Positions 9,166 through 32,952 of a stretch of 64,000 nucleotides of DNA are shown here, in pieces; the first letter of the stretch is position 1; every line of letters starts with the position of its first letter. The notes below the pieces were generated by a model. The model saw only the letters and a program-made list of their open reading frames with translations, was not told the origin of the DNA and did no database searches. The position numbers were made by a program, and so were the translations under genes. The DNA is from a bacterium. Lineage in GTDB: Bacteria; JAMCPX01. Location: positions 14,887-78,886 of the forward strand of contig JBBIVV010000004.1 of assembly GCA_037439545.1 (NCBI GenBank). The letters run 5' to 3'.

Positions 9166-10755
9166 CTAAGGCATTTGCAGAAGCGTGAATACATGGTCGT
9201 CTACGGCAGCATGGACAGCCTCAACGCTTCTGCCTTCGACGGATACAATGCTTTGAGCCGCTCCGATCTTTTTTAATTCTACGTGTGACCAGGCGGCAGC
9301 GAGCGGCATATTGAGCGCTTTTGCTGCACACTCTTTTGCCGTCCAGACTCTGATGGACGCTTCCAGGCGTCCGAGAGATGATCGTTCGCACAGTGTCTGC
9401 TCGCTTGATTTCATGTAAATATGTGCGCCTTTCAATAGAGTGCCGGTCAGGCGTTCCACGTCTATGCCAACCGGACGATGTCCTCCAACGGCGATAGCGA
9501 AACGGTCATCGTGAGACGCACTGCAGTAAAAATCTTGTTCTCTTCCCGGCAGCATGCACGCCGGGCGTATGCCATCGGGTGCTATTGTTTCTATAAGCTT
9601 CGGATCTTCCGGAACTTCGTTCTTGTAGAGGATACGGGCAAGACGCTTGAGTGCTATCCTCGCTCCTATGTGCTGGTTCCTTTTACGGTGGTGTTGTCTG
9701 AGCCCTGCTTCCAGCTCGCGAGATGACAATATTTTTCCTACAAACGGCAGGATTCCTGCCAGCTCCACGACAGACATTCCTTCGTTTCTCTGTTTTATCG
9801 TCCGGAGATTGTCCTGTTCCGCAGCCTTCACCCACTCGGGCACAATCGTTTTATGTTTGAATATGTCCTTCATTCTCACGCCGAATGTTGCTTCACGGAG
9901 TTCCCCGGCTCTGTCATATATCCATATATCAAAGTCAAGCATGTCCGTCCCGGTCTCTCCTGGAATAACTTTGCAAAAATACGATTCTCCGGCTGCGGTA
10001 GGACGAATAATTGTTCTTTCTGCATATCCCACGGGAAAGGCGACGTAACCGTGATATCGCTGCCCCCATGCACAGGCAACATGAAACGCGGCATCAAGGA
10101 CAAACGGAGAGCCCAAAGGAGGATTGAGCGTGCCGAGATGTGGCGCATGCAGCGATGCCACAGCCCCCTGCCCGGACAGGAGCACTACGCCTGCGGTGTT
10201 GTGGAACGATGGACCAAAAGGTACGAGTTCTTCATAAAGCCTTTCTGCAGGCACAGGAAAACAAATTCCTTCGGCTGCACATGCAGTGTCGAGTGATAAA
10301 GGTATGCGATGGGGTATATCTGAGAATGTTACCCGCACGTGGTCACGCATCCGTGAAATGGTTCCACGTGATGTTCGTACCATGGTACCGAGCGCAGCAG
10401 TCACTGCATCATGCACTTTTGTCTCCATGTCCGTAACTGCTTCCAGAGGAGGCGTTCCGTCAGGCAGAGGAAGAAACCTGAGGAATTCCGCATCCCGGGA
10501 ACCGGACACGCTTTGCCCGGGATAGTGCGCAACGACAGCCTCGGCAAGCCTTTCAAGCGACTCAACCGCCGGATACACCGGCTGTTCCTCTACCCTGTGG
10601 TCTTGAAGATAGGGACGGTTTTCTATCCGGAGCGGCAGGCGTATGCGGGTATTGTTGGTTGGTCCTCTCTCATCATTGATCATAGGTAAGAAGTTTTCTC
10701 CTCTGCTCGTAAAACAAAGTTCCCTTCGATAAACGGGTTTGTCGACTAAAATCAC
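9166..10755 (-). CDS. Fusion protein: PKS-type dehydratase (double hot-dog) domain + Sfp-type 4'-phosphopantetheinyl transferase
   Basis: The N-terminal ~300 aa carry the PKS DH motifs LQDHRVEEQPVYPAVESLE (HxxxGxxxxP-like His motif) and LDAAFH (DxxxH). The C-terminal ~220 aa carry PPTase motifs: FYCSASHDDR, GIDVERL, WTAKECAAKA. GTG start. Confidence 0.65.
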   Translation of the reverse strand: MILVDKPVYRRELCFTSRGENFLPMINDERGPTNNTRIRLPLRIENRPYLQDHRVEEQPVYPAVESLERLAEAVVAHYPGQSVSGSRDAEFLRFLPLPDGTPPLEAVTDMETKVHDAVTAALGTMVRTSRGTISRMRDHVRVTFSDIPHRIPLSLDTACAAEGICFPVPAERLYEELVPFGPSFHNTAGVVLLSGQGAVASLHAPHLGTLNPPLGSPFVLDAAFHVACAWGQRYHGYVAFPVGYAERTIIRPTAAGESYFCKVIPGETGTDMLDFDIWIYDRAGELREATFGVRMKDIFKHKTIVPEWVKAAEQDNLRTIKQRNEGMSVVELAGILPFVGKILSSRELEAGLRQHHRKRNQHIGARIALKRLARILYKNEVPEDPKLIETIAPDGIRPACMLPGREQDFYCSASHDDRFAIAVGGHRPVGIDVERLTGTLLKGAHIYMKSSEQTLCERSSLGRLEASIRVWTAKECAAKALNMPLAAAWSHVELKKIGAAQSIVSVEGRSVEAVHAAVDDHVFTLLQMP

Positions 10756-10761
10756 CTTTAA

Positions 10762-10810
10762 TCCCCCTTAACAGGGGGAGAACCAAAGTGATCCCCCCGG
10801 ACAAGGGGGG
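10762..10810 (-). promoter_or_regulatory. Two tandem GC-rich hairpins; the distal one masks the SD-like AGGGGGA of the DH-PPTase gene
   Basis: Hairpin 1 is TCCCCCT-TAAC-AGGGGGA (10762-10779), a 7-bp perfect stem whose 3' arm sits 6 nt upstream of the GTG start. Hairpin 2 is CCCCCC-GGACAA-GGGGGG (10793-10810). Both lie between the thioesterase stop and the DH-PPTase start. Confidence 0.3.
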
Positions 10811-10939
10811 GCGGGGGGTTCTTTGACGCCGATAGAGTAGCAGTCCACGCAGAATACTATGAAAGCTTTGCAAGCAGTTCATAGGTGTTTTCCTTCGCAT
10901 CGTCAAGAACTTCTTCCCTGTTGTTGAATATCCACAAGA

Positions 10940-11440
10940 TCATTTTTTGAATAAAGGCATTTTTTGGGGGAACGTCTGCCACATATGGACGGTCTTCTTG
11001 TCCACGGCGACCGGCCATCCGGAGGGGCTCATCGCACAATGCTGCGTAAATCCCGAGCATATAAGTTTGCCTGTCTCGGCATGGGCAATGATATAACGGA
11101 ATGCAACCTTGACGCGGGTTATCTCCGCGGGACGGGTGTAGACCCACATGGGATCATCGTAATACAGGGGCGAATGGAACGTCATACCCAGATCTATAAT
11201 AGGATATACATACCCGCTGTCCTCTACTTCTTTGTACGGATACCCTACGTCTCTCATCAAACTTGCACGTCCCAGTTCAAAATACCTCAGGTAATTGGCA
11301 TGGTAAACGACCTCGGACCGGTCCGTATCTGCATAGAGTGTCCGGTTGAATACCTTGTGCCAGATCAATTTGCCCACAGCATCGCGGACAAACGGAGAAT
11401 CCTTGCTTACGGCTTCGGGTTTAAATGGAGCTGGTCTCAT
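10940..11440 (-). CDS. 4HBT-family hot-dog thioesterase (YbgC-like)
   Basis: 166 aa with 4HBT motif ...SEVVYHANYLRYFELGRASL.... Abuts the KS gene stop. Confidence 0.75.
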   Translation of the reverse strand: MRPAPFKPEAVSKDSPFVRDAVGKLIWHKVFNRTLYADTDRSEVVYHANYLRYFELGRASLMRDVGYPYKEVEDSGYVYPIIDLGMTFHSPLYYDDPMWVYTRPAEITRVKVAFRYIIAHAETGKLICSGFTQHCAMSPSGWPVAVDKKTVHMWQTFPQKMPLFKK

Positions 11441-12706
11441 CTATATTCCCCGGAACACGATACAGCAATTCGTGCCGCCGAAACCAAAAGCATTGGACAT
11501 GGCAATTTCAACTTTCTGCTTCCTCGCCTTATTGGGAACAACGTCAATATTATTAAATGCCGGATCCGGAATGTGGTTCATGGTGGGAAGGATGATCCCC
11601 TGCCGCATACCTTCTATAGTCAGGGCGCCTTCTATGGCAGCGGCTGCTCCCAGGGTATGGCCGATTTGAGATTTGTTTGACGAAATCGGAATGTGCTCAA
11701 GAGCACTGCCAAAAACTTCCCGCAGACAATTTATTTCGTTGAGATCGCCCTTTGGCGTAGAAGTGCCGTGGGTATTTACATACTGTATGTCTCCAGATTT
11801 CAGGCCGGCGTCATCAATGGCCTCCCGCATTGCCCGGGTAACCGTCGGTCCGTTCGGCCTGGTGAAATGGTAGGCATCGGATGTCCAGCCAACGCCGATA
11901 ACCTCGGCCATGGGTTTGAGTCCGTAGATCGGGATGGCTTCTTCGGATGCAAGCACCATGGCTCCCGCACCCTCTGACAGCACGAAGCCCTGGCGGTCTA
12001 CGCTGAACGGCCGGGATGCCTGTCCGGGATCATTCCACGCGCGGTCTTTCTCCGTCACTTTTATCGTTGCATTCATGTTGGCAAATCCATGGAGGATCTC
12101 CGGCATGATCGGGGTATCTACACCGCCGGCAAGGACGAAATCGCTGTCTCCGTCTCTTATCATCCTTGCGCCGATACCAATGGCATAGTTTCCTGAAGCA
12201 CATGCAGCCTGCGGGGAAAAGATGGGGCCGGTGAACCCAAGGAGCATACTTGCTTTGCCCGAGGGAAGATTGGCACAAAGGTTGGGGAGAAGGTAATTAC
12301 TGACACTGTTGGGTCCCCTTTCTTTCAAATTGTTCATGGCTGTCCTGTAGGCGTCATGACCGTTGATCGCAGAGCCCATCAGGCATGCAGTCCTTTCTTT
12401 TACGCCGTCAACCATCTCCAATCCGGCATGTGTCAAAGCATCTTTGCATACTGCCATGGTCAGGATTACATACATTGCATTCCATTCCTTGGCTTCTTTC
12501 TCACTGGAAAAGTCCAGTGCCGCAGGGTTCCAATCGGGGATTTCTCCGACCACATTTGCCAGCGTATCCGCCTTGCACCTGGTAGCGCGCCTGAACCCGG
12601 TCTCTCCCTTCACAGCCCTTTTCCATGTTTCTTTCAAAGTCTTTCCCAGCGGTGTTGCCATTGCATACCCTACGACAAAGACCCTTCTATTTTTAGGTGA
12701 TTTCAT
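11441..12706 (-). CDS. Beta-ketoacyl-ACP synthase (FabF/FabB-like KS)
   Basis: 421 aa with active-site Cys (ACASGNYAIG) and the His-His pair (THGTSTPKGD, GHTLGAAAAIEG). Confidence 0.9.
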   Translation of the reverse strand: MKSPKNRRVFVVGYAMATPLGKTLKETWKRAVKGETGFRRATRCKADTLANVVGEIPDWNPAALDFSSEKEAKEWNAMYVILTMAVCKDALTHAGLEMVDGVKERTACLMGSAINGHDAYRTAMNNLKERGPNSVSNYLLPNLCANLPSGKASMLLGFTGPIFSPQAACASGNYAIGIGARMIRDGDSDFVLAGGVDTPIMPEILHGFANMNATIKVTEKDRAWNDPGQASRPFSVDRQGFVLSEGAGAMVLASEEAIPIYGLKPMAEVIGVGWTSDAYHFTRPNGPTVTRAMREAIDDAGLKSGDIQYVNTHGTSTPKGDLNEINCLREVFGSALEHIPISSNKSQIGHTLGAAAAIEGALTIEGMRQGIILPTMNHIPDPAFNNIDVVPNKARKQKVEIAMSNAFGFGGTNCCIVFRGI

Positions 12707-12712: not shown

Positions 12713-13963
12713 TTATCCCATTCTGTGAAAAACAACGCAAGCATTACATCCGCCGAACCCGAATGCGTTCTTTAAAACATACTCCTGCTTCAGTGTCCTT
12801 GCAGACCCGGGAACACAGTCCATGCTTATGGAAGGATCCGGGGTATAGTTGATGGTCGGAAGAATTGTGTCCGTCATCATTCCTTCCATGGCAAATATAC
12901 TCTCCAGGGCACTGGATGCGCCCATTGCGTGGCCGATCAGGGATTTGTTGGCACTCACGGGCGGGATTCTATCTCCGAAAATCTCCTTGAGTGCCCTATA
13001 CTCCACCTCATCTCCCACTTTTGTCGATGCTGCATGTGCATTGATGGCGCTGATATCCGGAGGAGCAATACCCGCATGTTTTATGGCACCATTTATGCAT
13101 TGAACAATGGTGTCCTGCCTGGGCGCGACATAGTGTTGGGCATCGGCAGTCATTGCCCATCCTGCGAGCTCCAGGGAATACCTTAATCCGTGAGCCCTCG
13201 CAAATTCAGGCGTCGATAATATGATACACCCGGCACCTTCCGATATTACGAACCCTCGCCTGTTCACGGAAAACGGCCTGCTTGCCGTGGCCGGTGCTTC
13301 AGGCGGTGCCTGCAGGGTGTTTTGATATGCCCCATTCATGGTCGCAAACCCTGCAACGATGCTTTCCACAAGCGGGAAATCCACTGCTCCGCAAATGGCC
13401 ACGTCAGCCATACCGCTCTGCAACATCATGGATCCTATGATCATGGATGTACTTCCGGTAGCACAGGCTGTGACGGTGGTCACTATAGGTCCTGTGGCAT
13501 TGGTCAGTATCGATACCTTGCCTCCCACCATGTTGACACAGGAATTAGGGTTTACATACGGTTTGGGCAATTGTCCGGATTCCACCATTATCCTGTCCGC
13601 ATCGAGAACCGCGTCAATACCGCCGATAGCAGTGCTGAATGTGGTTGCTATTCTGGGCGACAACTCCCCGGTAATTTCCAGATCGATCTTTTTCAACGCA
13701 CGATGGACTACGAGCATTCCGTATTTAAAAATCGGCGATTTCCATTGCACCATGTTTCTGGGGCTCAAAAACGGGTAAGGGGTAACGTCAACATCCGCAA
13801 CCTGTCCTGCAACCTGCACGGGAAATTTTTCTCTTAAGGGAAACCGTGTAAGGGGGCCGATACCACTGCGGCCGTGAGCAGCCTTGTTCCATTGGTCTTC
13901 AAAGTCCGTACCTAACGGAGAAACTGCATCATATCCCAGAACTACAGGCTTCACCGTATTCAT
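12713..13963 (-). CDS. Beta-ketoacyl-ACP synthase (second KS, catalytically intact)
   Basis: 416 aa with Cys motif TACATGSTS and His motifs AHAASTKVGD, GHAMGASSALES. Confidence 0.9.
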   Translation of the reverse strand: MNTVKPVVLGYDAVSPLGTDFEDQWNKAAHGRSGIGPLTRFPLREKFPVQVAGQVADVDVTPYPFLSPRNMVQWKSPIFKYGMLVVHRALKKIDLEITGELSPRIATTFSTAIGGIDAVLDADRIMVESGQLPKPYVNPNSCVNMVGGKVSILTNATGPIVTTVTACATGSTSMIIGSMMLQSGMADVAICGAVDFPLVESIVAGFATMNGAYQNTLQAPPEAPATASRPFSVNRRGFVISEGAGCIILSTPEFARAHGLRYSLELAGWAMTADAQHYVAPRQDTIVQCINGAIKHAGIAPPDISAINAHAASTKVGDEVEYRALKEIFGDRIPPVSANKSLIGHAMGASSALESIFAMEGMMTDTILPTINYTPDPSISMDCVPGSARTLKQEYVLKNAFGFGGCNACVVFHRMG

Positions 13964-14009: not shown

Positions 14010-15011
14010 TTACCACGGAATGAAACGGTATAATTTTGCAAACATCTCGTAAACTTCGATCCAATTCTGAAAATCCTCGGGGCTACGCATGTGCGCCCGC
14101 TTGTTGACCATAACCCAGCTCATGTGCGCGGCCCCATCTTTGCATGTGGAACAATCCCTGGTGGCAGACGTGCAGCACCGGTGCATTGTCTTGAGATCAG
14201 CCCCATACCGGATAAACCTGATAAGCCGTTTCGGCTGGGGATTGCGGGTATCCATGGGCTCGGTGACCGAAGGGCATTCGCCCCATCCCCATGCGCGGTC
14301 AAGCATTTTCCCTGTTGTGATTATTTTGTGGTAATACTTACTGGAGATTACGGTGTTATCGTATTTTTCCAGCATATAATCCATTTCCTCGCGCACGCTT
14401 TTAAGTATTTCCGGAGTCCATACGAACCCTTCCACGTCTTCATCGTTCGAAAATAACTGGAGGTGGACTTTGAGCCCGGCGTCCTTTATTTTTTTAACAA
14501 TACGTTCAATCGTGCCGGTCCCGACCTGTTTGGGTGTTATGGTGTACAGATAGTACGTGTAAGGGTCGCCCTCATAATTTTTCAGCGATATGCCGAACGT
14601 GTTCTTACCGCGCAGCACTTTCTCTTCGCTCTCGTCTCCCCACAGGGAGATTCCGACCATCATGTCCGGAAACCTGCTCCTTGGAATTTTGATCAGACCG
14701 TTTGTCGCACAATAGGTGGGAATACGCCGGTAAAACGCTTCAATCCTGTCAAGGAACAGCGTTGGTTCGCCTCCGATCAATATTGCCAGGTTCACGCCCC
14801 TTTCCTTCTCCTTATCGACAAACTCTTCCCATCTATGGATATCGGACTCTTCTTCCAGTTTGTGCTCGTCCGAAGAAAAGAAGAAACAGCCTTTACATCT
14901 CAGGTTACACTTGTTCGTCATGTCGTAGATGGAACTGCGTATGTTGAGATTGGAAATGGCGTTATACCGTTTTTTCCATTCTCCGTCTATAAGCGTACTT
15001 ACCGTGTGCAT
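14010..15011 (-). CDS. Radical SAM protein with C-terminal Cys cluster (SPASM/twitch-like)
   Basis: Cx3Cx2C motif (CNLRCKGC) near the N-terminus, glycine-rich SAM motif (ILIGGEPTL), C-terminal CCTSATRDCSTCKD cluster. Paralog of 15692-16780. Confidence 0.8.
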   Translation of the reverse strand: MHTVSTLIDGEWKKRYNAISNLNIRSSIYDMTNKCNLRCKGCFFFSSDEHKLEEESDIHRWEEFVDKEKERGVNLAILIGGEPTLFLDRIEAFYRRIPTYCATNGLIKIPRSRFPDMMVGISLWGDESEEKVLRGKNTFGISLKNYEGDPYTYYLYTITPKQVGTGTIERIVKKIKDAGLKVHLQLFSNDEDVEGFVWTPEILKSVREEMDYMLEKYDNTVISSKYYHKIITTGKMLDRAWGWGECPSVTEPMDTRNPQPKRLIRFIRYGADLKTMHRCCTSATRDCSTCKDGAAHMSWVMVNKRAHMRSPEDFQNWIEVYEMFAKLYRFIPW

Positions 15012-15027: not shown

Positions 15028-15618
15028 TCAGCGGGTACTTCTTATTGCATGATCAAACCCTCTGTCCTCCAATATTGCACGTACCATTTTATCGATCATC
15101 TTGTATGCCCGCTTCTCAAGAAGTCCGGAATCGGTCGTCACTGCCGGCTCCATGGTTACGGTAAAACGCTTCTGGAAGGATGCACCTTTGCCGTGCACGC
15201 TGACCATATACTGGAACTGCTGGTCCGTAATGGACTCCAGTGTGATGTCTACCTCCGGGGCATTTGACGCCTGATCCATGCTATGCACCTCAAGTCCTGC
15301 ACTCTGAAAGGCCTTTTGAATGCAATACCAGAAATACGATGTCAGACTCGGCCAGCTCTCATAGGTCATGGAGCCCTGAGGATTATAGTAATACCACATG
15401 GTCGTATTGTTCGCCTGGTTGTCTATGTTGGCGAGATATATCGACTTTCCGCGATAGCCCGGGAATGTCCTTCCGAGCTCCGGCATATAATTGTTCTGCG
15501 TGATCTCTACCTTTGCAGAGCCGCCATTGATTCCGCGCCTGCAACCTCCTGCAACTGCGATCATAAGAATGGTTATCGTACCTATCCATGCAACTACTCT
15601 GAACGTGTTATTCCGCAT
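15028..15618 (-). CDS. Lipoprotein, unknown function
   Basis: Signal peptide with lipobox (IAVAGGC); 196 aa, no recognisable domain. Confidence 0.5.
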   Translation of the reverse strand: MRNNTFRVVAWIGTITILMIAVAGGCRRGINGGSAKVEITQNNYMPELGRTFPGYRGKSIYLANIDNQANNTTMWYYYNPQGSMTYESWPSLTSYFWYCIQKAFQSAGLEVHSMDQASNAPEVDITLESITDQQFQYMVSVHGKGASFQKRFTVTMEPAVTTDSGLLEKRAYKMIDKMVRAILEDRGFDHAIRSTR

Positions 15619-15691: not shown

Positions 15692-16780
15692 TCAAAAACC
15701 CGGGGGCTGCTGCATATGAGAACACAGGTTCTCTCCCTTCTCATATCCCTTGACCCAGACGGCAAGGTACGTATCTACATAATCAAGCCATGATTTAAAG
15801 ATGTCCGGGTCCCCTGTGTGTCTGTTGAGCTTCGAGGTAACTATAGAACTCCCTGCGGCATAATGCCTGCAATCATCGCACACCGTGTCCGGCACGCAGC
15901 ATGCAGCACTTCTGTCCCACGTAAGATCAGTCCTGTACTGCCGGAATGACCTGCCGAGTCCTAATGCAGTGGATGAATTCATGCGTGGATAGGGACATGA
16001 GAATAATCGATACAGACTGCTCCTGTGGGTATGCACCGTGGCACTATATTTTGAAAACAGTACGGCCCCCGGGTATTTTTCCAACAGATCTATCATTACA
16101 TGGCGGGCTTTATCCAGCGTTTCCGGCGTATGCAATAGATTTCCTGAGTAGTCCATCGGTGCTGAAAACATATTGAACGTAAATTTACAATCATTTGACG
16201 CCAGTATGTCTGCGACCTCATAGGCTTCATCGATTGTATTCCTGCAGAAAGTGTATACGAATACCGCACGCGGGTCACCGGCATAATTATCGATTTGTTT
16301 TTTGAGCAGGTTCCCGGCTTTTCTTACTCTGCGGCTGGTCTCATCATTACCCCATACCGAGATGTGTATCTTGTATCCGACTGATTCCGGTATACGTTTG
16401 AGTCCGTTTGTAGCTATGCACCCTAACGGGATTTCCCCATAGCACGCGTGCAGCAGATCCGGGACGAGGGACGGCTCGGCACCGGCGAGAACAACGAATG
16501 TTATGCCCCTTTCTTTTTCCTTCCGGAAGAGGTCGCGCCATGCCTGCGGGTCGAGATTTTCCCGTGCAAATTGTTTTTCTCCGTTATAGTAGTAGCATCC
16601 GTCGCACCGCATGTTGCACCTCGTGGCCATGTCATACGTGGATTCCCGTAAAAAAAAGTATTTCCTGACCTTTTCCCAACGTTCCCGCACACGTGTATCC
16701 TCAAGAAGGTCTGCGAATTTCCATTCTTTTGTCAATGGTAAAGGGTCATGAAGGCTTAATGCTGCATTATCCGATTTCAT
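15692..16780 (-). CDS. Radical SAM protein with C-terminal Cys cluster (paralog of 14010-15011)
   Basis: CNMRCDGC Cx3Cx2C motif, VLAGAEPSL, C-terminal CCVPDTVCDDCRHY cluster. Start chosen at the internal ATG (MKSDNAAL) preceded by GAGGGA; the ORF track extends to 16873. Confidence 0.8.
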   Translation of the reverse strand: MKSDNAALSLHDPLPLTKEWKFADLLEDTRVRERWEKVRKYFFLRESTYDMATRCNMRCDGCYYYNGEKQFARENLDPQAWRDLFRKEKERGITFVVLAGAEPSLVPDLLHACYGEIPLGCIATNGLKRIPESVGYKIHISVWGNDETSRRVRKAGNLLKKQIDNYAGDPRAVFVYTFCRNTIDEAYEVADILASNDCKFTFNMFSAPMDYSGNLLHTPETLDKARHVMIDLLEKYPGAVLFSKYSATVHTHRSSLYRLFSCPYPRMNSSTALGLGRSFRQYRTDLTWDRSAACCVPDTVCDDCRHYAAGSSIVTSKLNRHTGDPDIFKSWLDYVDTYLAVWVKGYEKGENLCSHMQQPPGF

Positions 16781-16935
16781 TATATTTGTGTCCCTCAAAA
16801 AAATTACACGTCTGCGGGTTATTGTCAAGACTTTGTAATTGTTGTTAATTGAACGGGTGAAACAGTTGCACACACGGTGATCGATCTGAAAATAGTGTAA
16901 AAGGATGAAGAGTTTTTCGGTTTAATACAGAGAAC

Positions 16936-17853: not shown

Positions 17854-18426
17854 TTAAGAATTGGATTTGTTTTCCCGAACGTATTTTTCAAGACTTCTGT
17901 ATAAGGTGTTCGTATTTTGTTCAACAAGTGAAAACAGAATCTTCGAGATTTCATCGTTTATCTTGCTTATGAGCGCCGCGGGAACAAGAGGATAATTTAA
18001 GAAATTAACAGTAATCTCGCCCTGTGCCGTTATTACCGTATATTCGCCGTCCGTCGAGTATATGTCTTTGCCGGAAACCTTGATGTATTCCTTAAAAACG
18101 AATGGTTCATACGTCCAGTTGCATACATAAGTATCATTGTACCACTCGGCAATGTCAAGCCATGCCATATCTGGCACCTTTATTACCTGGCCTATGATAT
18201 CGGGCAATATGTGCTTACCCTGCCATTTACTTGTAATATAGGTTATATCGCCCTTATTTTTTCTTTCGAGTATTATCATGTTTACAATGTTCGGCATATA
18301 GACCACCAACTTGTCGAGGTCATCCCGCACGGTCTCATAAGCAACGTGCATGGGTAAAGCAATTTTCACCGAATGTTCAAAATGCATATAATGAGACATG
18401 TAACAGGAATCGTATGCCGGCGTCAA
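17854..18426 (-). CDS. Hypothetical protein (190 aa); first gene of the minus-strand cluster block
   Basis: ORF in operon position immediately downstream of the divergent promoter region; no confident family. Confidence 0.4.
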   Translation of the reverse strand: MTPAYDSCYMSHYMHFEHSVKIALPMHVAYETVRDDLDKLVVYMPNIVNMIILERKNKGDITYITSKWQGKHILPDIIGQVIKVPDMAWLDIAEWYNDTYVCNWTYEPFVFKEYIKVSGKDIYSTDGEYTVITAQGEITVNFLNYPLVPAALISKINDEISKILFSLVEQNTNTLYRSLEKYVRENKSNS

Positions 18427-18577: not shown

Positions 18578-19792
18578 ATGAAGTTTCATCTCATATTTCC
18601 AAAATGGCCGAAGTTGCCTTCGCAGACACCTTTCACCCTGCCGCCCTTAGGGATTATCACTGTGGCTGCAAGTATGCCCGATAGTGTTGAAACAAGCGTA
18701 TGCGATGAAAACGTACAACCCGTGGATTTTGACGGCAACTTTGATATTATCGGCATATCCATTATGCTGAGCTGCCAGGCACCGCGGGCTTACGAAATCG
18801 CCCATGAATTTAAAAAACGCGGCAAAACAGTCATCCTCGGGGGACTCCATGTATCGCTGCTCCCGGACGAGGCCGGCCAACACGCCGACAGTATCGTCAC
18901 CGGGGAAGTGGAGGGTCTTTTGGGGGAGATTGTCAAGGACTTCCAGGAAGGTAAGCTTAAAAAATCATACGCGGTAAAGGGTTTTCCGGATATCGCTCAG
19001 ATCCCGAACCCAAGACGGGATCTTTACGACAAAAAAAGACATTATGTGTATAAAGGATGGGAGTTGGTAGATCTTGTCCAGACGTCGCGGGGGTGCCGTT
19101 TTAATTGCTATCCATGCTGTGTGCCTTATCTGGGCGGACGCATGCACCGGATGCGTCCGATCGATCATGTCGTTTCGGACATGAAAACGTGCTCCGACCT
19201 TTTATTCATCGTCGATAATTCTCTGGAGCAGAATGTGGCATGGGAAAAGGAGGTCTTCAGGTCCATGATAGGTATGGGAAAACGCTGGGTATCGCACCCC
19301 ATCTCTCCTGTACCCGAGGTGCTGGACCTGGCACGGAAGGCAGGCTGCTGGTATATTTATCACGCCATATACACCATCTCGGACAAAATCAGAGACAGGA
19401 TAAAGATGTACCACGACTACGGCATCGGAGTGGAAGGCACCATCCTCCTCGGTATGGATGAACATACTGAAGACTTTATCAAGCGGTTCATCGATTTCCT
19501 CCTCACCATAGAGCTTGATCTCGCCGAGTTTACGGTCCTCACGCCGTTTCCAGGCACGCAGGTCTATGAACAAATGAATGCAGAAGGCAGAATATTCGAT
19601 AAAGACTGGAACCATTACAATGCCTCTACAGTGGTCATTCAGCCGCGCCGGATGAAACCGGAAACCCTCCAGAGACTGTACTATGAGGCGTGGGACAATT
19701 TTTATGCTGCCGAATCGCAGTCTGTAAAGATGAGCAGGCTCTTTTTGCAAATATACAAGGACAGGCGGAAGGGTACTCTTGAAAAGGCTTAG
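18578..19792 (+). CDS. B12-binding-domain radical SAM protein
   Basis: N-terminal cobalamin-binding-like region (IIGISIMLSCQ...KTVILGGLHVS) and radical SAM CRFNCYPC (Cx3Cx2C). Confidence 0.8.
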   Translation: MKFHLIFPKWPKLPSQTPFTLPPLGIITVAASMPDSVETSVCDENVQPVDFDGNFDIIGISIMLSCQAPRAYEIAHEFKKRGKTVILGGLHVSLLPDEAGQHADSIVTGEVEGLLGEIVKDFQEGKLKKSYAVKGFPDIAQIPNPRRDLYDKKRHYVYKGWELVDLVQTSRGCRFNCYPCCVPYLGGRMHRMRPIDHVVSDMKTCSDLLFIVDNSLEQNVAWEKEVFRSMIGMGKRWVSHPISPVPEVLDLARKAGCWYIYHAIYTISDKIRDRIKMYHDYGIGVEGTILLGMDEHTEDFIKRFIDFLLTIELDLAEFTVLTPFPGTQVYEQMNAEGRIFDKDWNHYNASTVVIQPRRMKPETLQRLYYEAWDNFYAAESQSVKMSRLFLQIYKDRRKGTLEKA

Positions 19793-19902
19793 GACGAGAC
19801 GTCCTCCCCCTGGCAAAGCTTTATTGTGCCGGCTGCTTGACAATGGAGTATATATTTTTTATAAAAATGCACAGAAGAAAACAGCAATAACGAGGAGATA
19901 GT

Positions 19903-20193
19903 ATGGTAACACAAACAAAAAAATTGACCGTCCAGGATATTCAGTTGAAGGTCTCGGAAATATTTATCAATGAACTTAAGCTTGAAGATGTGACCCCTGA
20001 GACATTGGATCCGGAACTGCACTTGATGGAGGAGCTGGGAATCGACAGCATGGATCTCATAACAGTAGTGTTAGTTCTGAAGGATGAATTCGCAGTCAAT
20101 ATTGATGAGGCTGATTATCCAAAACTTACCAATATCCGGCTTATCGCTGAGTATATTAAGGAGAAAATGGAAAATGCAAGAAGCGCCCGTTGA
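19903..20193 (+). CDS. Acyl carrier protein 1
   Basis: 96 aa with phosphopantetheine attachment motif LGIDSMDL. Confidence 0.8.
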   Translation: MVTQTKKLTVQDIQLKVSEIFINELKLEDVTPETLDPELHLMEELGIDSMDLITVVLVLKDEFAVNIDEADYPKLTNIRLIAEYIKEKMENARSAR

Positions 20194-20464
20194 CAAATTG
20201 CCCGTTGACAAATTGATAGATGAACTGAAAAGAAAGGTTCTCGATATCCTCAATATTCAGGATATCGGCCTGAGCGACATAGACACCAATTCTCCCCTGG
20301 TGGGGAGTAATTTAGGCATTGATTCTATCGATATCCTGGAACTTGTCACTGTCATCGAACATGATTACGGGGTAAAAATAGATAATAAAGAGTTGGGCGA
20401 GAAGGTATTCGCCTCATTTGCCTCTCTGGCACAATATATAGCAGACAATAGGACTCTCATTTGA
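20174..20464 (+). CDS. Acyl carrier protein 2 (overlaps ACP1 by 20 nt, different frame)
   Basis: Start at ATG 20174 (MQEAPVDK...) after AAGGAG. Motif LGIDSIDILE. The ORF track begins further upstream at 20084. Confidence 0.75.
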   Translation: MQEAPVDKLPVDKLIDELKRKVLDILNIQDIGLSDIDTNSPLVGSNLGIDSIDILELVTVIEHDYGVKIDNKELGEKVFASFASLAQYIADNRTLI

Positions 20465-20465
20465 T

Positions 20466-22637
20466 GTGTCCATGATGACACCTGAAGGCATTTTCATCAC
20501 AGGTCTCGGCATCATTAGTCCTCTGGGAAAAGGCCGGCTCTCAACAGTCAGTTCGTTAAAAAATTCATTCTGCGGCATTCACAACGTCAATGTGTTCACG
20601 GTAGCTCCGGACCAGCTCATGCCTGTTGCGGATGTTTCCATCCCTTTCGAAGTTGAGCCCGGAGTCCCGAGGACCCATGCACTTGCACTCGCAGCAGCAC
20701 GCGATGCAATGGAAGGCAAAAACTGTATACCGGACGCCGTGATTATGGGAGTTACAACCGGAGGAATGCCGAAAAGCGAGGTGTTGCTTAAATCAAAGGT
20801 CAGGATCCCTCAGGAGTATACCTATCATGGGGCAGGTACTATCGCCACTTATTTAGCAGAGCATTTCTCGTGTCAGGGACCGGCATTAACCATATCGACC
20901 GCGTGTTCCAGCGGCACGGCAGCCATTATAATAGCACGGGAACTGATCCGGCATGGAAAGGCAGAAAAGGTGCTCGTCGGTGGAGCAGATGCGCTCTGTC
21001 TGTTTACCTATTTCGGGTTTTTTTCGTTGCAGTTAATGGATGCCAGGGGTGCGCGTCCTCTGGACAAGGATCGGGCAGGCATGTCACTGGGTGAAGGTGC
21101 TGCCGTACTCTTTATCGAAAAGTCACAGAGTCCGCCGCCAGGCTCTATCGCACAGATTCTTGGCGGTGGTATTTCCTGCGATGCCTATCATCCGACCGCG
21201 CCGCATCCTGCGGGTGACGGTGCGGTGAAAGCCATGCGCGGGGCCATTGCAGACGCAGGCATCTCGGTCGGCGATATTGAATATGTAAACCTCCACGGGA
21301 CAGCGACACAGGATAACGATGCTTCGGAGGCTATTGCCATCCGGACATTGTTCGGTGACCGGTTCCCCGCACTATCTTCCACCAAAGGTATGACGGGTCA
21401 TTCTCTCGGCGCATCCGGTGCAGTCGAATGTGCCCTCTGTTCATTGTCCGTGTCAGAAGGAATAATCCCGGGGACAATAGGCTGCACGAACCTTGATACA
21501 AAACTCGGAATACCGGCTGTGCTGCACCCGGAAAATCATCCGGTAAGAATTGCCCTCTCCAATTCTTTCGGTTTCGGCGGCAATAATGCCTCTGTGGTAA
21601 TCGGTTCTGCGGACCTACGGCCGCCTGAGCGGCCGCTTATGCATGTCCGGAGCCTGAATGTTATCGGACTTGCTTGTTTAACCGGTGCCGGAGGTGCGGA
21701 TGCCTCTTTCCAAAAATTTTCACAGGGCGATTCTCTCTCCGGGACACTGAGCGATGAAGAGATATCCAGAGACCTTCCCCAGAGACAAATCAGGCGCCTC
21801 AAGAGACTTCCCCGTATGGCACTTGCCCTGGCAAACGCAGCCAGAAAGGATGCCGGTGATAAATTTCACCCTTCCTCGATTTTTTTCGGTACAGGATGGG
21901 GCCCCTTATCCGAGACCTATGACTTTCTTACAAAACTTTTCGGATCCGACATGAGATTTTTCAGCCCGACGGATTTTATCAATTCCGTGCACAATGCACC
22001 GGCGGGCCAGGTGGCCATGGAGTTTAAGGCAATGGGAACGAACCTTACGGCAACAGGCGGGGATTATTCCTTTGAGCAGGCACTTTTGATGGCAAGCCTT
22101 CTGGCCTCGGAAAAGGAAGAGCTCATGCTCTTCGGGGCAGACGAGATGCATCCGGAACTGTCCCCCCTCTTTGATCCCTCGGTCCCCGGTGAGAGAATTC
22201 CCTCTGACGGCGGCGGGGCACTTATGGCAGTGGCAACGACCTCTCCCTCGGGTCCTGCGATAACACCGGTTGTATATCGAATGGCTGCGAAGGATTCCGG
22301 GTGGGCGATAATGAATGACCTCAAGGTTACCGACTTCCATAAACATTATGCTGCTATTTTTGCAGGGATCCCTTCAGCGTATGAAAAAATGGCCGGAGAT
22401 CAGTTAACGGATTTTCTTTCCTCTTCAAAATTTAATGGGCCTGTTATTCACTACCGGAAGTACACAGGTCAATATGCAACATCATCTGCTGTTGCTGCTG
22501 CTCTGGCAGTCAAAATCATACAGCAGGGTTTTCTTCCTGCGGGTTTGACGCACGCCGACGAAGTTTCTCTGGGAGAGAAAGGGATTCTGGTCATGGGTTT
22601 TGGTCCTTATTGCACAGCCGTCGACATCCGTAACTGA
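20466..22637 (+). CDS. Fused ketosynthase - chain-length-factor-like didomain protein (KS-CLF)
   Basis: The N-terminal ~380 aa form an active KS (TACSSGTAAI, HGTATQDND, GHSLGASG). The C-terminal ~340 aa form a second KS fold (IRRLKRLPRMALALANAARKDAG...) in which the active Cys position reads TATGGDYS, with no Cys. Confidence 0.8.
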   Translation: MSMMTPEGIFITGLGIISPLGKGRLSTVSSLKNSFCGIHNVNVFTVAPDQLMPVADVSIPFEVEPGVPRTHALALAAARDAMEGKNCIPDAVIMGVTTGGMPKSEVLLKSKVRIPQEYTYHGAGTIATYLAEHFSCQGPALTISTACSSGTAAIIIARELIRHGKAEKVLVGGADALCLFTYFGFFSLQLMDARGARPLDKDRAGMSLGEGAAVLFIEKSQSPPPGSIAQILGGGISCDAYHPTAPHPAGDGAVKAMRGAIADAGISVGDIEYVNLHGTATQDNDASEAIAIRTLFGDRFPALSSTKGMTGHSLGASGAVECALCSLSVSEGIIPGTIGCTNLDTKLGIPAVLHPENHPVRIALSNSFGFGGNNASVVIGSADLRPPERPLMHVRSLNVIGLACLTGAGGADASFQKFSQGDSLSGTLSDEEISRDLPQRQIRRLKRLPRMALALANAARKDAGDKFHPSSIFFGTGWGPLSETYDFLTKLFGSDMRFFSPTDFINSVHNAPAGQVAMEFKAMGTNLTATGGDYSFEQALLMASLLASEKEELMLFGADEMHPELSPLFDPSVPGERIPSDGGGALMAVATTSPSGPAITPVVYRMAAKDSGWAIMNDLKVTDFHKHYAAIFAGIPSAYEKMAGDQLTDFLSSSKFNGPVIHYRKYTGQYATSSAVAAALAVKIIQQGFLPAGLTHADEVSLGEKGILVMGFGPYCTAVDIRN

Positions 22638-22644
22638 GGCAGTT

Positions 22645-24120
22645 ATGCGTTTAACAGATCATATAATTATTATAGGTTCGGGTATCGGAGGAATGACCGC
22701 TGCAATCGTTCTTGCAAAACTGGGATACCGTGTGACTGTCGTCGAAAAAAACAAACGCCCCGGCGGCCTGATGAGGAGTTATATTCGGGAAGGCGTCGAA
22801 TGCGAAGTCGGGCTCCACTATGTCGGCGCAATGGACACAGGCCAGCCTTTGCGGCAGATCTTCGATCTCCTCGGTATATCGGGGCGTATACCTGCCGTAC
22901 GCATGGGAGAAGACGGGATTGTCGATAAATATATTCTACCCGGGATGGTGTTCGACTTCCCCCCCGGCATTGATATGTTCGAAGAGAACCTTCATAAGGC
23001 TTTCCCTGAAGAAGGCCGCCGGATAGCGGAGATTGCCGCCCTAATCCGCAATGCAATTGTACGCTTTTCCGCTTTGTCAATTTTTTTCGGGGAAAAAGAA
23101 GAGTTTGATCTTTCATGGGAACTACAGCCTGTGGAGAATTACTTTAATAAACTCGGATGTTCCCTGAAATTGCGCAGTATCCTTTCTGTTCCGCTGGCTT
23201 GGCTTGGTGTGGGACCCGGGGAGTGCCCCATGTACCTATGGAGTTCTTCGATATCATCATACCTGATGTCCTCCTGGCGCCTGCCGCAGGGAGGTGCACA
23301 TTTGGCGGATACACTTGCAGAAAGGCTGCGGGGGCTTGGCGGGGAAATCATTTGTAATGACGGAGTCTCCAGGATAACCGTACGTGATCATGCAGTACAG
23401 GGAGTGGTCCTGAAATCCGGGAGAGAATTGGCTTCTTCAGTGATTATAGCGGCAATTCATCCAAAATTAATGCTCCGAATGCTTCCCGCTGATTCTTATA
23501 AACCTTCCTTTAAAAACAGGATCTCATCGCTTCAGGAGACTCCGGGAATATTTGCCGCGCACATCGCAATTCCCGAACAAGAGGTTTCTTACAAACCGTA
23601 TAATATCTTTGCCTTTGATGCGGACAATACCGTGCACGGCGGAGTGACATTTTTTACTATGAAGAAATCTTCCAAGCCCGGGTGGAACTGTATTTCCATC
23701 CTTGAAGAAAGTCCTTATGAAAAGTGGCAGTCCTGGGAAAACACCACAAGGAAACACCGCCCTCAGGATTACAGGGATGCCAAGGATCGGGAGACCGGTA
23801 TTCTTTTGAATAAAGCTTTGAAAATCTTCGGTCATATGCAGGGGGCGCAGGTCGTGGATTCTTTTACCCCGTTATCGTTCTGTGACTGGATGGATAGCCC
23901 GCAGGGGGGTGCCTATGGTGTGAGTCATTCTGTCAGACAGAAGTTTAAAACTGCGGCACTGCACAGGACGCCTCTGTCGGGATTGCACGTGGTGGGACAG
24001 AGCGTTTTTGCCCCGGGTATACTGGGCACTGCTTTGGGAACGCTCCGGGTCATTGCTTCTCTTGTCGGATACGATACTCTGCATCAAAAATTTATTGACT
24101 CACGGGAAGAGGGGATTTAA
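22645..24120 (+). CDS. FAD-dependent oxidoreductase, phytoene-desaturase (CrtI)/amine-oxidase-like
   Basis: Dinucleotide-binding IIIIGSGIGGMTAAIVLAKLGYRVTVVEKN plus the long CrtI-like body. Start at ATG 22645, 8 nt after the KS-CLF stop. Confidence 0.75.
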   Translation: MRLTDHIIIIGSGIGGMTAAIVLAKLGYRVTVVEKNKRPGGLMRSYIREGVECEVGLHYVGAMDTGQPLRQIFDLLGISGRIPAVRMGEDGIVDKYILPGMVFDFPPGIDMFEENLHKAFPEEGRRIAEIAALIRNAIVRFSALSIFFGEKEEFDLSWELQPVENYFNKLGCSLKLRSILSVPLAWLGVGPGECPMYLWSSSISSYLMSSWRLPQGGAHLADTLAERLRGLGGEIICNDGVSRITVRDHAVQGVVLKSGRELASSVIIAAIHPKLMLRMLPADSYKPSFKNRISSLQETPGIFAAHIAIPEQEVSYKPYNIFAFDADNTVHGGVTFFTMKKSSKPGWNCISILEESPYEKWQSWENTTRKHRPQDYRDAKDRETGILLNKALKIFGHMQGAQVVDSFTPLSFCDWMDSPQGGAYGVSHSVRQKFKTAALHRTPLSGLHVVGQSVFAPGILGTALGTLRVIASLVGYDTLHQKFIDSREEGI

Positions 24121-24137
24121 AGGATTGAAGAACTCTT

Positions 24138-25691
24138 ATGAAGAAAAAACATATACACAATAAATCCGTTCAGAAGCCTGTCGTCATCGGAGAAGGTGAT
24201 GTCACGCTCGTTCAGGTAGCAGATATCGCACGCGGCGTGTCCCGCGTTGCGATCAGTTCTCAAAAGAATTTTATCGACAAGATACGGCTGTCTCAAAAAA
24301 CTCTGCAGCGTGTTCTCGATGCCGACGAGCCGATATACGGCGTAACGACCGGATACGGTGCGGCATGCGGCAACAGGATTAAGAAGCACAATACGGAAGA
24401 ACTTGGCAGCAATCTCATAAAATATCACGGCTGCGGCACCGGTGCTCCTTTAGGCATAGAGGAGACGCGTGCGTCTATCGTGGCCAGACTGGTATGCTTT
24501 GCGCGAGGATACTCGGGTGTTTCCGTCAATCTGATGCAGGCCATGGCGGACTTGCTCAATAAAGGTATTACTCCTATCGTCCCGTCTATGGGATCTGTCG
24601 GCGCATCAGGGGACCTCACCCCGATGTCGTATATTGCAGCATGTCTGTCCGGAGACAGGGATGTCCTGTATAAAGGGCGCAGGATGAGCTCAAAAAAAGC
24701 CTTGTCTCAGGCCGGACTATCCCCCTACCGTTTTCTCCCGAAAGAACCTCTCGGTATGATCAACGGGACATCGGTAATGACAGGGATTGCCGTAATCGCT
24801 CTCAAGAAGAGCAGGGTTATCGTTGATATGGCAATGGCGGCAACCGCACTCGCACTCCATGCCCTCATGGGACATGAAAGGCATTTTCATCCGACCGTGG
24901 TCAATTCAAAGCCTCATCCGGGACAGCAACTGGCAGGGGAACGGCTGCGGAATATTTTATCTTCAATAGATCGGCCGCCGGAATCGGACAAGCAGGATCA
25001 TTTTCAGGACCCGTATTCCATTCGCTGCGCTCCCCAGATCATCGGCGTTGCGTACGACGCCCTTGATTGGGCCGAGGAATGGGTCCAGAGAGAGGTAAAC
25101 AGTTCCAACGACAATCCGCTTGCAGACGGCGACCATAAAGAGGTTTTCATGGGCGGTAATTTTTATGGCGGACATATAGCGTTTGCCATGGATGCACTGA
25201 AGAGTGCCCTTGCATCGGTTGCCGATATGATAGACCGTCAGATGGCGCTTTTGGTGGACCAGCGGTACAACCGCGGGCTTCCGGCAAACCTCGTGAAAGT
25301 GAAAGGGGGCAAACAACTGCTCAATCACGGGTTCAAAGGCATGCAGATAACTGCGTCAGCTTTAGCCGCAGAGGCTTTGAAAAACACCATGCCTGCTGCA
25401 TCCTTTTCAAGGTCAACCGAATCTCACAATCAGGACAAGGTGAGTATGGGTACCATTTCAGCGAGGGATGCTGCATGGCAATGCGAATTGGTGGGCCGTG
25501 TTGTCGCCATACATCTCATGGCTGCGGTCCAGGCATGCGAATTGAGAGGCGGCTTGAACGGAAGGCCTGTGCTTGCTTCGCTCGCAAAAGAAGTTCGGAA
25601 AAAAGTCAGGGCAACGGTTTTCGATCGTCCGATGGATAAGGACATTGAAGTTCTTGCAGATGCACTGCCGGAGCTGGTGCGTTCCCTATGA
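24138..25691 (+). CDS. MIO-dependent aromatic amino acid ammonia-lyase (HAL/PAL/TAL family)
   Basis: 517 aa with Ala-Ser-Gly MIO triad in GASGDLTPMSYIAA and conserved YGVTTGYG, NGTS, NDNPL motifs. Confidence 0.85.
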   Translation: MKKKHIHNKSVQKPVVIGEGDVTLVQVADIARGVSRVAISSQKNFIDKIRLSQKTLQRVLDADEPIYGVTTGYGAACGNRIKKHNTEELGSNLIKYHGCGTGAPLGIEETRASIVARLVCFARGYSGVSVNLMQAMADLLNKGITPIVPSMGSVGASGDLTPMSYIAACLSGDRDVLYKGRRMSSKKALSQAGLSPYRFLPKEPLGMINGTSVMTGIAVIALKKSRVIVDMAMAATALALHALMGHERHFHPTVVNSKPHPGQQLAGERLRNILSSIDRPPESDKQDHFQDPYSIRCAPQIIGVAYDALDWAEEWVQREVNSSNDNPLADGDHKEVFMGGNFYGGHIAFAMDALKSALASVADMIDRQMALLVDQRYNRGLPANLVKVKGGKQLLNHGFKGMQITASALAAEALKNTMPAASFSRSTESHNQDKVSMGTISARDAAWQCELVGRVVAIHLMAAVQACELRGGLNGRPVLASLAKEVRKKVRATVFDRPMDKDIEVLADALPELVRSL

Positions 25692-29019: not shown

Positions 29020-29115
29020 AGGAATAAGCGTTGCGGAAATTGCGTTATAAGCATTGACATAAAAACATTTATTATCTAAAAATCTAAGAAAGACTAATGC
29101 AAAAGGAAGAAGAAA

Positions 29116-32220: not shown

Positions 32221-32952
32221 CTATACCATGCCGCCGTTTACCGAGATTACCTGTCCCGTGACATATGATGCATCATCCGAGCACAGGAACCGCACGACCT
32301 TTGCGACTTCCCCTGGGGTGCCGACCCGTTCCATGGGAATGAGCTTGAGTATAATGTCGCGCGGAGCATCTTTGATCATCTCTGTTTCTATCAGCCCCGG
32401 AGCCACAACATTCACCCTGATACCGAGGCGGGCAACTTCCTTGGAAAGGGCCTTGCTTGCACCGATCAATCCGGCCTTGGCTGCGGAATAGTTCGTCTGG
32501 CCGCGGTTCCCGGTTATCCCTGACACAGAGGATATGGTAATAATGGAACAGCCCTTCTTCACACGCAGCATGCTGGTAAGGACCGGCTTTGTCACATTAA
32601 AGAACCCGTCCAGGGATGTCTGGATCACGGATTGCCAGTCTTTCTGGGGCATCATCGCTAAAAGCCCGTCTGAGGAAATACCCGCATTATTGACCAGGAC
32701 ATGGATTGCCTTGTATTTGTTCAGGAGGCCGGCTATGGCAGTTTTGGCTGTCTCGGCATTTCCCACATCGAATTGTATAACCTCTCCCTCACCTCCGGCA
32801 TCGTTCACCAGACGAAGTGTCTCCTGTGCCGCTGCCCCGTTGCTCTTATAATTTATTATTATGGTATACCCTGCACGTGCAAGCTCCACGCACGTTGCAC
32901 GGCCAATTCCCCTGCTCCCGCCGGTAACCAATGCTATTTTTTTGTCTTCCAT
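32221..32952 (-). CDS. fabG: 3-oxoacyl-ACP reductase (SDR)
   Basis: 243 aa with TGGSRGIGRA cofactor motif, NNAG and YxxxK-type SDR catalytic region. Confidence 0.85.
   Translation of the reverse strand: MEDKKIALVTGGSRGIGRATCVELARAGYTIIINYKSNGAAAQETLRLVNDAGGEGEVIQFDVGNAETAKTAIAGLLNKYKAIHVLVNNAGISSDGLLAMMPQKDWQSVIQTSLDGFFNVTKPVLTSMLRVKKGCSIITISSVSGITGNRGQTNYSAAKAGLIGASKALSKEVARLGIRVNVVAPGLIETEMIKDAPRDIILKLIPMERVGTPGEVAKVVRFLCSDDASYVTGQVISVNGGMV

Follow-up and report, generated by a model that had tools for sequence, protein, structure and literature searches.

A free-standing dehydratase-phosphopantetheinyl transferase protein encoded in a conserved twin-radical-SAM gene cassette

Results and Discussion

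A dehydratase and a phosphopantetheinyl transferase in one chain

We analyzed a 64,000-nucleotide stretch of DNA from a bacterium of the GTDB lineage JAMCPX01 (assembly GCA_037439545.1, contig JBBIVV010000004.1, positions 14,887 to 78,886; hereafter the window) and in it a minus-strand gene whose product joins a polyketide synthase (PKS)-type dehydratase (DH) to a phosphopantetheinyl transferase (PPTase). The fusion is genuine and its definition is clear-cut; its domain arrangement is a variation on one already known, and it belongs to a large existing family. On the basis of its sequence and predicted structure, we put at roughly 75% the probability that the protein is a free-standing bifunctional enzyme, one that would prime the acyl carrier proteins (ACPs) of its gene cluster and dehydrate 3-hydroxyacyl-ACP in a type II (dissociated) fatty acid- or polyketide-like pathway.

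The gene lies in a single uninterrupted open reading frame (ORF) of the window (9166..10755, minus strand; 529 codons from GTG). All the motifs quoted in an earlier, sequence-only reading of this DNA were found in it: HRVEEQPVYPAVESLE, DAAFH, FYCSASH, GIDVE, and WTAKECAAKA. That reading described one polypeptide of 529 amino acids (aa); the single chain was confirmed, and its length is probably 505 aa (start at ATG 10683, not GTG 10755). Both Pfam models that the reading had named for the two halves, PS-DH and ACPS, scored above their cut-offs.

For the N-terminal half, PS-DH gave 31.2 bits over residues 178 to 297 of the 529-aa ORF (cut-off, 23.7), and PKS_DH_N gave 25.2 bits over residues 39 to 101 of the same ORF, slightly below its cut-off of 27. 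We built a family profile from an alignment of 43 full-length homologues with 36 to 91% identity (alignment A2), which also served as the basis of the AlphaFold2 model. Against PDB sequences, this profile matched the DH of CurF over positions 14 to 269 (E value = 3.7e-10). Foldseek matches of this half in the PDB were MlnB, CurF/H/J, a MAS-like PKS, and trans-acyltransferase (trans-AT) DHs (target template modeling [TM] scores of 0.65 to 0.78), the best being MlnB (5hst; E value = 7e-15, TM score = 0.77). The catalytic residues were retained as well: His29 of the HxxxGxxxxP motif was invariant in a second alignment (A1) and reached at least 90% conservation in A2, Pro38 was conserved, and Tyr150 and Gly157 of the YxxLVPFGPxF motif and Asp197 and His201 of LDAAFH were invariant among homologues. 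The fold predictions and motifs thus confirmed the assignment of this half, made in the sequence-only reading, as a PKS-type double-hotdog DH with its His and Asp motifs.

For the C-terminal half, the Pfam ACPS model gave 32.1 bits over residues 428 to 505 of the 529-aa ORF (cut-off, 25), and NCBIfam returned merely weak partial matches to EntD-type PPTases. The family profile matched Sfp among the PDB sequences (E value = 1.2e-10), with positions 315 to 463 aligned to Sfp 9 to 164, i.e., to both lobes. When the C-terminal 214 aa were modeled alone with AlphaFold2, the predicted local distance difference test score (pLDDT) was 96.1, and Foldseek aligned this model with AASDHPPT, PptAb, PcpS, PptT, and Sfp at TM scores of 0.70 to 0.75 over 213 to 245 columns; AcpS-type enzymes aligned to only half of it. 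Residues His391, Gly406, Asp408, Glu410, Trp447, Lys450, Glu451, and Lys455 were invariant in the 43 sequences. By predicted fold and motifs, the half was thereby confirmed as a full-size Sfp-type PPTase, complete as the sequence-only reading had described it.

The AlphaFold2 model of the 505-aa protein, made from alignment A2, had a pLDDT of 93.8 and a predicted TM score of 0.91. Its layout, a double hotdog (strands in residues 13 to 272) joined by a linker of some 28 residues to an alpha/beta domain (residues 301 to 505), supplied the domain boundaries for which a structural prediction had been proposed (Table 1). The confidence of the full-length model suggests a defined two-domain body.

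Distribution of the fusion and of its separate halves

Next, we looked into how widely the two domains occur together and apart (proteins and loci of relatives are numbered with P and L, respectively). In a word-indexed search, both domains were present in 94 proteins, and a further 26 proteins had only the DH. An exhaustive search of 1.84 billion cluster representatives (50%-identity clusters) returned 773 proteins at E values of 1e-3 or below, 269 of them at 1e-30 or below. We assigned architectures to the best 150 of the 773 representatives, every one of which was a family member, a range that does not extend to weaker matches with other architectures, such as the enediyne PKSs. Of these 150, 65 were full fusions and 59 were complete DH-only proteins; the rest were 25 fragments and 1 complete PPTase-only protein. 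Among GTDB species genomes, 303 stretches encoded a relative, and the best 80 of the 303 were all full fusions; the metagenome-assembled genomes behind these 80 were labeled Deltaproteobacteria, Desulfobacterales, Syntrophales, Myxococcota/Myxococcales, and Spirochaetota. The organism of the window is itself of an uncultured lineage deposited as "Deltaproteobacteria bacterium"; its aspartyl-tRNA synthetase (AspRS) shares 82 to 87% identity with that of such genomes and about 60% with those of Desulfuromonadia and Nitrospirota. The fusion is therefore a large family already present in public databases, under generic names such as "polyketide synthase dehydratase domain-containing protein" and "phosphopantetheinyl transferase," and is not peculiar to the genome of the window.

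The halves also occur as separate proteins, so the Rosetta-stone test suggested in the sequence-only reading had a positive outcome. The DH-only proteins are about 290 aa long, end exactly at the domain boundary just past a PPxW motif (alignment A1), and are encoded in the identical cassette slot, directly after the thioesterase gene (L002, L084 to L086). In a neighbor-joining tree of the DH domain, they were interspersed with the fusions as one large and several small groups, which suggests, tentatively for this topology, that the PPTase may have been gained or lost repeatedly. P0244 is a genuine stand-alone PPTase gene of 214 aa with 44% identity to query residues 293 to 504; an outer-membrane beta-barrel gene precedes it. 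We also noted proteins of 365 to 430 aa, starting with Met, that hold only the second DH hotdog and a complete PPTase (P0013, P0093, P0094, P0146, P0164, P0166, P0167, P0181, P0183, and P0212), at least one of which (P0013, L009) stems from a frameshifted gene.

Gene neighborhood

The gene is part of a cassette with the conserved order ACP, radical S-adenosylmethionine (SAM) enzyme, radical SAM enzyme, FabF-like ketosynthase (KS), FabF-like KS, 4HBT thioesterase (TE), and DH(-PPTase). The two radical SAM genes, two KS genes, and TE gene lay upstream on the same strand in 46 of the 50 loci with more than 7 kb of upstream sequence, usually with the orthologue of ACP1 first. Of the 75 loci whose upstream sequence was long enough, 58 had the TE gene directly beside the fusion gene; 10 loci, most of them labeled Syntrophales/Syntrophaceae, had genes for a KS and a B12 radical SAM enzyme (in some with an acyltransferase) in between. 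A B12 radical SAM gene precedes the fusion gene in several Syntrophales loci, and in a minority of genomes, among them L018, L019, L022, L050, and L055, the fusion gene is not beside the TE/KS/radical SAM cassette.

In the window (Table 1), the minus-strand operon runs from a gene for a 190-aa protein of unknown function through a YceI-like gene, rSAM_2, a 196-aa unknown, rSAM_1, KS_B, KS_A, and the 4HBT gene to the DH-PPTase gene, which is last. The 196-aa ORF has counterparts in the same position in the closest relatives L003 and L008 (74 to 77% identity), a same-size gene in L088, and counterparts in L020, L027, L054, and L061 at about 28 to 38%. The adjacent, divergent plus-strand set begins with a B12 radical SAM gene (a weak match to TIGR04072, "lipid biosynthesis B12-binding/radical SAM"), ACP1, ACP2, a 723-aa fusion of a KS and a chain length factor (CLF), and a phytoene-desaturase-like oxidase; it continues with an aromatic amino acid ammonia-lyase, a second 4HBT gene, a DegV/Dak2 (fatty acid kinase-like) fusion, a PlsC-type acyltransferase, and a third KS. 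Beyond it lie a LolA-like gene and the gene of a FabG-like ketoreductase (KR), both on the minus strand. Because this KR is present at 32221 to 32952, the cluster is not KR-less. Its gene is hidden beneath longer or overlapping plus-strand ORFs (32180 to 32491, 32534 to 32851, and the start of 32861 to 34174), which have no Pfam hits and are probably spurious.

Table 1. Features of the DH-PPTase gene and its surroundings (positions in the window)
Feature	Position	Strand	Remarks
Sfp-type (group II) PPTase domain	9169..9783	(-)	Residues 301-505
PPTase WTAKECAAK motif	Trp447, 9343-9345; Lys450, 9334-9336; Glu451, 9331-9333; Lys455, 9319-9321	(-)	
PPTase GIDVE motif	Asp408, 9460-9462; Glu410, 9454-9456	(-)	
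PPTase SASH motif, His391	9511-9513	(-)	
Interdomain linker	9784..9867	(-)	Residues 273-300, ~28 residues; conserved P..W motif; DH-only homologues stop here
PKS-type double-hotdog DH domain	9868..10650	(-)	Residues 12-272 of the 505-aa protein
DH His201	10081-10083	(-)	
DH catalytic Asp197	10093-10095	(-)	
DH YxxLVPFGPxF motif, first residue Tyr150	10234-10236	(-)	
DH catalytic His29	10597-10599	(-)	
DH-PPTase gene	9166..10683	(-)	505 aa from the likeliest start, ATG 10683; longest ORF reaches GTG 10755
Insertion, ~254 nt	10684..10937	(-)	Between TE stop and DH-PPTase start; direct ATGATC copies on both flanks
4HBT/YbgC-type hotdog thioesterase	10940..11440	(-)	Pfam 4HBT_2, TIGR00051; usual immediate upstream neighbor
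FabF-like ketosynthase KS_A	11441..12706	(-)	Cys-His-His present
FabF-like ketosynthase KS_B	12713..13963	(-)	Cys-His-His present
Radical SAM enzyme rSAM_1	14010..15011	(-)	Cassette member
196-aa ORF between rSAM_1 and rSAM_2	15028-15618	(-)	No Pfam or NCBIfam hit
Radical SAM enzyme rSAM_2	15692..16873	(-)	Cassette member
190-aa ORF in operon	17854-18426	(-)	No Pfam or NCBIfam hit
ACP1 (LGIDSMDL)	19903..20193	(+)	In most relatives its orthologue stands first in the cassette; both domains presumably act on it
ACP2 (LGIDSIDIL)	20165..20464	(+)	Start approximate; second presumed PPTase substrate
FabG-like ketoreductase	32221..32952	(-)	tblastn, 61% identity to the KR of locus L084

The features by which aryl polyene (APE) or "ladderane-like" type II fatty acid synthase (FAS)-like clusters are recognized were found in the neighborhood from 18578 to 32952, not in the protein itself: discrete ACPs, a KS/CLF pair, a KR, a LolA-like gene, an acyltransferase, and phytoene-desaturase-like and B12 radical SAM genes. 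From its gene content, this region looks like a flexirubin/aryl polyene-type or "ladderane-like" cluster. Related loci carry ApeI/ApeP-like, MMPL-methyltransferase, and glycosyltransferase genes. "Ladderane-like" and aryl polyene-like clusters whose product is not known have been reported by genome mining in Desulfobacterota and other anaerobes (PMC9902471), and a synteny between Kuenenia and Desulfotalea that includes a radical SAM pair (Kuste3342/3343 and DP1853/1855) was noted in 2009 (PMC2649909). We set aside ladderane cluster I of the anammox bacteria, which uses FabZ instead of a PS-DH protein and has no such PPTase fusion (PMC10139942; bioRxiv 10.64898/2026.05.19.726425). In the literature, we found no description of the product of the cassette, including for Desulfobacterales or Syntrophales.

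Proposed function

The bifunctional reading places both domains at the carrier proteins. The C-terminal domain would transfer 4'-phosphopantetheine from coenzyme A (CoA), with Mg2+, onto the conserved serine of ACP1 and ACP2, and with a PPTase of its own the pathway would not depend on the housekeeping AcpS. The N-terminal domain would act on the same carrier proteins, converting 3-hydroxyacyl-ACP to enoyl-ACP during iterative chain growth, with the 3-hydroxyacyl-ACP supplied by the two FabF-like KSs and the cluster KR. The radical SAM enzymes would modify the chain, and the adjoining hotdog TE would release the product. The fusion would ensure coexpression and put two ACP-docking activities in one protein. 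In favor of this scheme, the cluster holds a KR and two ACPs with the GxDS serine that makes them candidate PPTase substrates. We also count in its favor the nonsynonymous-to-synonymous rate ratios given below for the two halves. We infer the activities, the substrates, and the order of events from the folds, motifs, conservation, and synteny described above and from the separability of the two halves.

An alternative that we judge unlikely concerns the first half only. The double-hotdog domain might be an enoyl isomerase, a cyclase/product-template domain, or a dehydratase/isomerase that determines the geometry of double bonds for the radical SAM steps, with the PPTase still priming the ACPs. 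The structural matches do include PKS double-hotdog enoyl isomerases and dehydratase-cyclases (4u3v and 5o15), the two radical SAM enzymes of the cassette imply unusual downstream chemistry, and the domain evolves fastest among the cassette members. Against these points stand the canonical His/Asp dyad and the YxxxGPxF-like motif, both retained here. Isomerase-only double-hotdog domains typically lack the Asp, which we also count against this alternative. Moreover, a KS-plus-KR system needs a dehydration step, and we detected no other PS-DH, FabZ/FabA, or ApeI/ApeP-like DH, and no other PPTase, within the 64-kb window, so that the DH is indeed, as the sequence-only reading held, the only such activity visible in the cluster. 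The clusters of DH-only relatives do hold ApeI/ApeP-like dehydratases.

The arrangement has a precedent in the enediyne PKSs (PKSEs). The sequence-only reading was not aware of the didomain as a standard architecture; this needs qualifying, since DH followed by PPTase is the C terminus of PKSEs; of free-standing DH-PPTases we found no description. CalE8 has the domains KS, AT, ACP, KR, DH, and PPTase and a partner hotdog thioesterase, CalE7 (PMC3107222). The window protein resembles CalE8, SgcE, and DynE8 (TE partners CalE7, SgcE10, and DynE7) in the order of DH, short linker, and PPTase, in the DxxxH form of the Asp motif, and in the adjoining gene for a small 4HBT-type thioesterase. It differs from them in being a free-standing 505-aa didomain with no KS, AT, ACP, or KR in its chain, predicted to serve discrete ACPs in trans, with FabF-like KSs and two radical SAM enzymes as partners, and its family occurs in lineages of uncultured anaerobes, not in Actinomycetota. 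In PKSEs, the PPTase domain primes the ACP of its own synthase.

It is rather improbable that the gene arose by fission from the DH-PPTase C terminus of a PKSE (or is the ancestor of that C terminus), which would make the cassette a PKSE-like polyene synthase in dissociated form. By tblastn against plasmids, query residues 18 to 452 aligned in one stretch with the C terminus of a 1963-aa PKSE of Streptomyces sp. NBC_00887 (NZ_CP108789), in which we found KS, AT, PP-binding, KR, and PS-DH domains. This protein is encoded in an annotated enediyne cassette, with a 157-aa 4HBT_2 thioesterase directly after it that mirrors the TE neighbor here, and hhalign of our family against it gave a probability of 98.8% (E value = 8.5e-17, 390 columns) across both domains and the linker. 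However, any protein with a DH followed by a PPTase would align collinearly, and domain by domain there was no special affinity: the DH scored 41.6 bits to the PKSE versus 42 bits to CurF, and the PPTase 12 bits to the PKSE versus 43.5 bits to Sfp, which puts the window PPTase much nearer the canonical Sfp, in a comparison with one PKSE sequence that is a weak test of affinity. The cassette KSs are FabF-like and not type I PKS-like, and the two thioesterases are 22% identical over just 82 residues. A PKSE carries KS-AT-ACP-KR-DH-PPTase in about 1900 aa; the protein here has 505 aa and the last two domains only. An independent fusion is thus more likely than a fission, judging from the one PKSE sequence compared, and we regard the protein, by analogy, as probably working like a PKSE C terminus while being neither a member nor a fragment of that family.

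We consider it very unlikely that the second half is a PPTase-like domain devoid of transferase activity, serving as an ACP- or CoA-binding scaffold that brings the carrier protein to the DH. Relative to the 91%-identical L088, the ratio of nonsynonymous to synonymous substitution rates (dN/dS) was higher in the PPTase half than in the DH half (0.48 versus 0.21, values that are rough at so small a divergence), the domain is dispensable in many relatives, and its Pfam score is modest (32 bits). These observations are outweighed in our judgment by the invariance, in the 43 sequences, of the Mg2+/CoA-binding and catalytic residues of Sfp-type enzymes (SxSH, GxDxE, and WxxKExxxK), by the full two-lobed Sfp fold predicted at a pLDDT of 96, and by the closely related stand-alone PPTase gene P0244.

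A longer shot still is that the Sfp-type domain takes phosphopantetheine already acylated, from malonyl-CoA or a starter acyl-CoA, and loads it directly onto apo-ACP, next to the DH to which the chain passes. In that case, the DH-PPTase would serve as the point of entry into a widespread, uncharacterized twin-radical-SAM, FabF-pair lipid pathway in anaerobic bacteria. Behind this idea is the finding that no acyltransferase or loading enzyme belongs to the cassette itself.

That the fusion is an artefact of a frameshift, a sequencing error, or a chimeric assembly of two adjacent genes, an outcome that the sequence-only reading had named as fatal to its claim, can be dismissed: DH and PPTase share one unbroken ORF in 81 of the 82 loci fetched (L009 is frameshifted), the same intact fusion recurs in 80 independent assemblies, which come from separate studies and represent different phyla, as well as in the 65 full fusions among the best 150 representatives, the homologues align without gaps over the domain junction, and the model is confident there.

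Several observations weigh against the bifunctional reading. DH-only proteins are frequent in the same cassette (complete ones make up the 59 of the best 150 representatives counted above), and no PPTase was found within 10 kb of the DH-only genes at L002 and L084 to L086; the PPTase is therefore not essential to the pathway, and the fusion appears convenient rather than obligatory. For the same reason, the proposal in the sequence-only reading that the protein physically couples ACP activation with DH activity, itself conjectural, loses ground, as such coupling is dispensable. Furthermore, the DH-PPTase gene evolves by far the fastest of the cassette genes; its median identity to the window is 40% versus 59 to 73% for the others (loci L003 to L082), and in a few genomes it lies away from the cassette, as in L034 (9953 to 11488), where it sits amid genes for seryl-tRNA synthetase, a protease, and a lytic transglycosylase. 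Most homologues keep the Gly of the HxxxGxxxxP motif, but the window protein and its 91% relative have Glu there (HRVEEQPVYP). Finally, an insertion of about 254 nt splits the gene from the TE gene, with which it is otherwise translationally coupled, and because of this separation its expression in this genome is uncertain.

Relation to other known systems and significance

Apart from the PKSEs, a number of systems share part of the arrangement. Several type II PKSs need dedicated in-cluster Sfp-type PPTases (PMC9813960), and an "ACP synthase" gene, kuste2802, is located in an anammox FAS-like cluster (PMC4790861). Gra-ORF32, JadM (PMC9813960), and kuste2802 (PMC4790861) are like the window protein in providing a pathway-specific PPTase inside a dissociated PKS/FAS-like cluster to prime its ACP, and the fold and motifs of the Sfp type are common to them; they are single-domain proteins, whereas here the PPTase is fused behind a dehydratase. 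RerB, a PPTase-Y-TE protein of a Rhodococcus polyene iterative PKS (PMC11563203), likewise has its PPTase fused to another enzyme of the same acyl carrier pathway, in that case a thioesterase and not a DH. The C-terminal PPT of the fungal FAS alpha subunit is a further PPTase fused within an acyl carrier pathway; it gave weak matches here, of AcpS size only (~110 aligned columns), and lies inside a 1.9-kDa-residue megasynthase. The DHs of modular and trans-AT PKSs (CurF/H/J/K, MlnB, and MAS-like PKS) share the double hotdog (TM score, ~0.65 to 0.78), both the His and the Asp motif, and a size of about 270 to 290 aa, but they are embedded in megasynthases, whereas the DH here, only 14 to 18% identical to them, belongs to a small discrete protein of a FabF-based system.

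We found no paper describing a free-standing DH-PPTase or a fused DH/PPTase protein. If both activities are confirmed, the protein would be, as far as the literature searched shows, the first described free-standing DH-PPTase and a type II counterpart of the PPTase integrated in enediyne synthases. It would also supply the PPTase for reconstituting "ladderane-like" or aryl polyene-like clusters of uncultured anaerobes in Escherichia coli, and it is likely a prerequisite for the heterologous reconstitution of the cassette. The fusion by itself opens no long-standing question. It is a handy marker by which to find, in genomes, a conserved seven-gene cassette that several hundred species carry, and this uncharacterized twin-radical-SAM cassette is a more promising object than the fusion itself.

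Start of the gene and other features of the window

The start of the DH-PPTase gene was assessed from its homologues, which align to about 93% of the 529-aa ORF and start near its residues 25 to 38. In most relatives, the stop codon of the TE gene overlaps the start of the DH-PPTase gene (ATGA); in L001, for example, the TE gene spans 9525 to 10004 and position 10001 is the start of the fusion gene. The window has two copies of the hexamer ATGATC here, one at 10938 to 10943, which holds the TE stop codon TGA, and one at 10678 to 10683, which holds the internal ATG of the ORF. An insertion into the ATGA stop/start overlap with a 6-bp duplication is the simplest reading of this pattern, so ATG 10683 is most likely the authentic start and the protein most likely has 505 aa. 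An exact-sequence look-up returned no database record for either the 505-aa or the 529-aa protein; a 100%-identical AspRS does have a record, so the contig was probably deposited under another start call.

The insertion was seen in the window genome alone, and no relative has it; the other loci show a TE-to-DH-PPTase spacing of about 480 nt. It carries 12-nt inverted repeats (10684 to 10695 and 10908 to 10919) and two G/C-rich hairpins and folds somewhat better than shuffled sequences (z = -2.5). It has no Rfam match and no second copy within the window, and its one metagenome match is limited to a 24-nt hairpin; we therefore treat a mobile-element origin as unproven. A 77-aa ORF in this gap (10673..10906, minus strand) was considered as a possible ACP and rejected, as it has no Pfam hit and its sequence is not ACP-like.

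Farther along the window lie dnaN (44841 to 45935) and dnaA (46124 to 47464), both on the minus strand, and then a low-GC stretch (34.5 to 37% GC at 44 to 48 kb). The cumulative GC skew reaches its minimum near 48 kb, and from these features the chromosomal replication origin is probably located around 47.5 to 47.9 kb.

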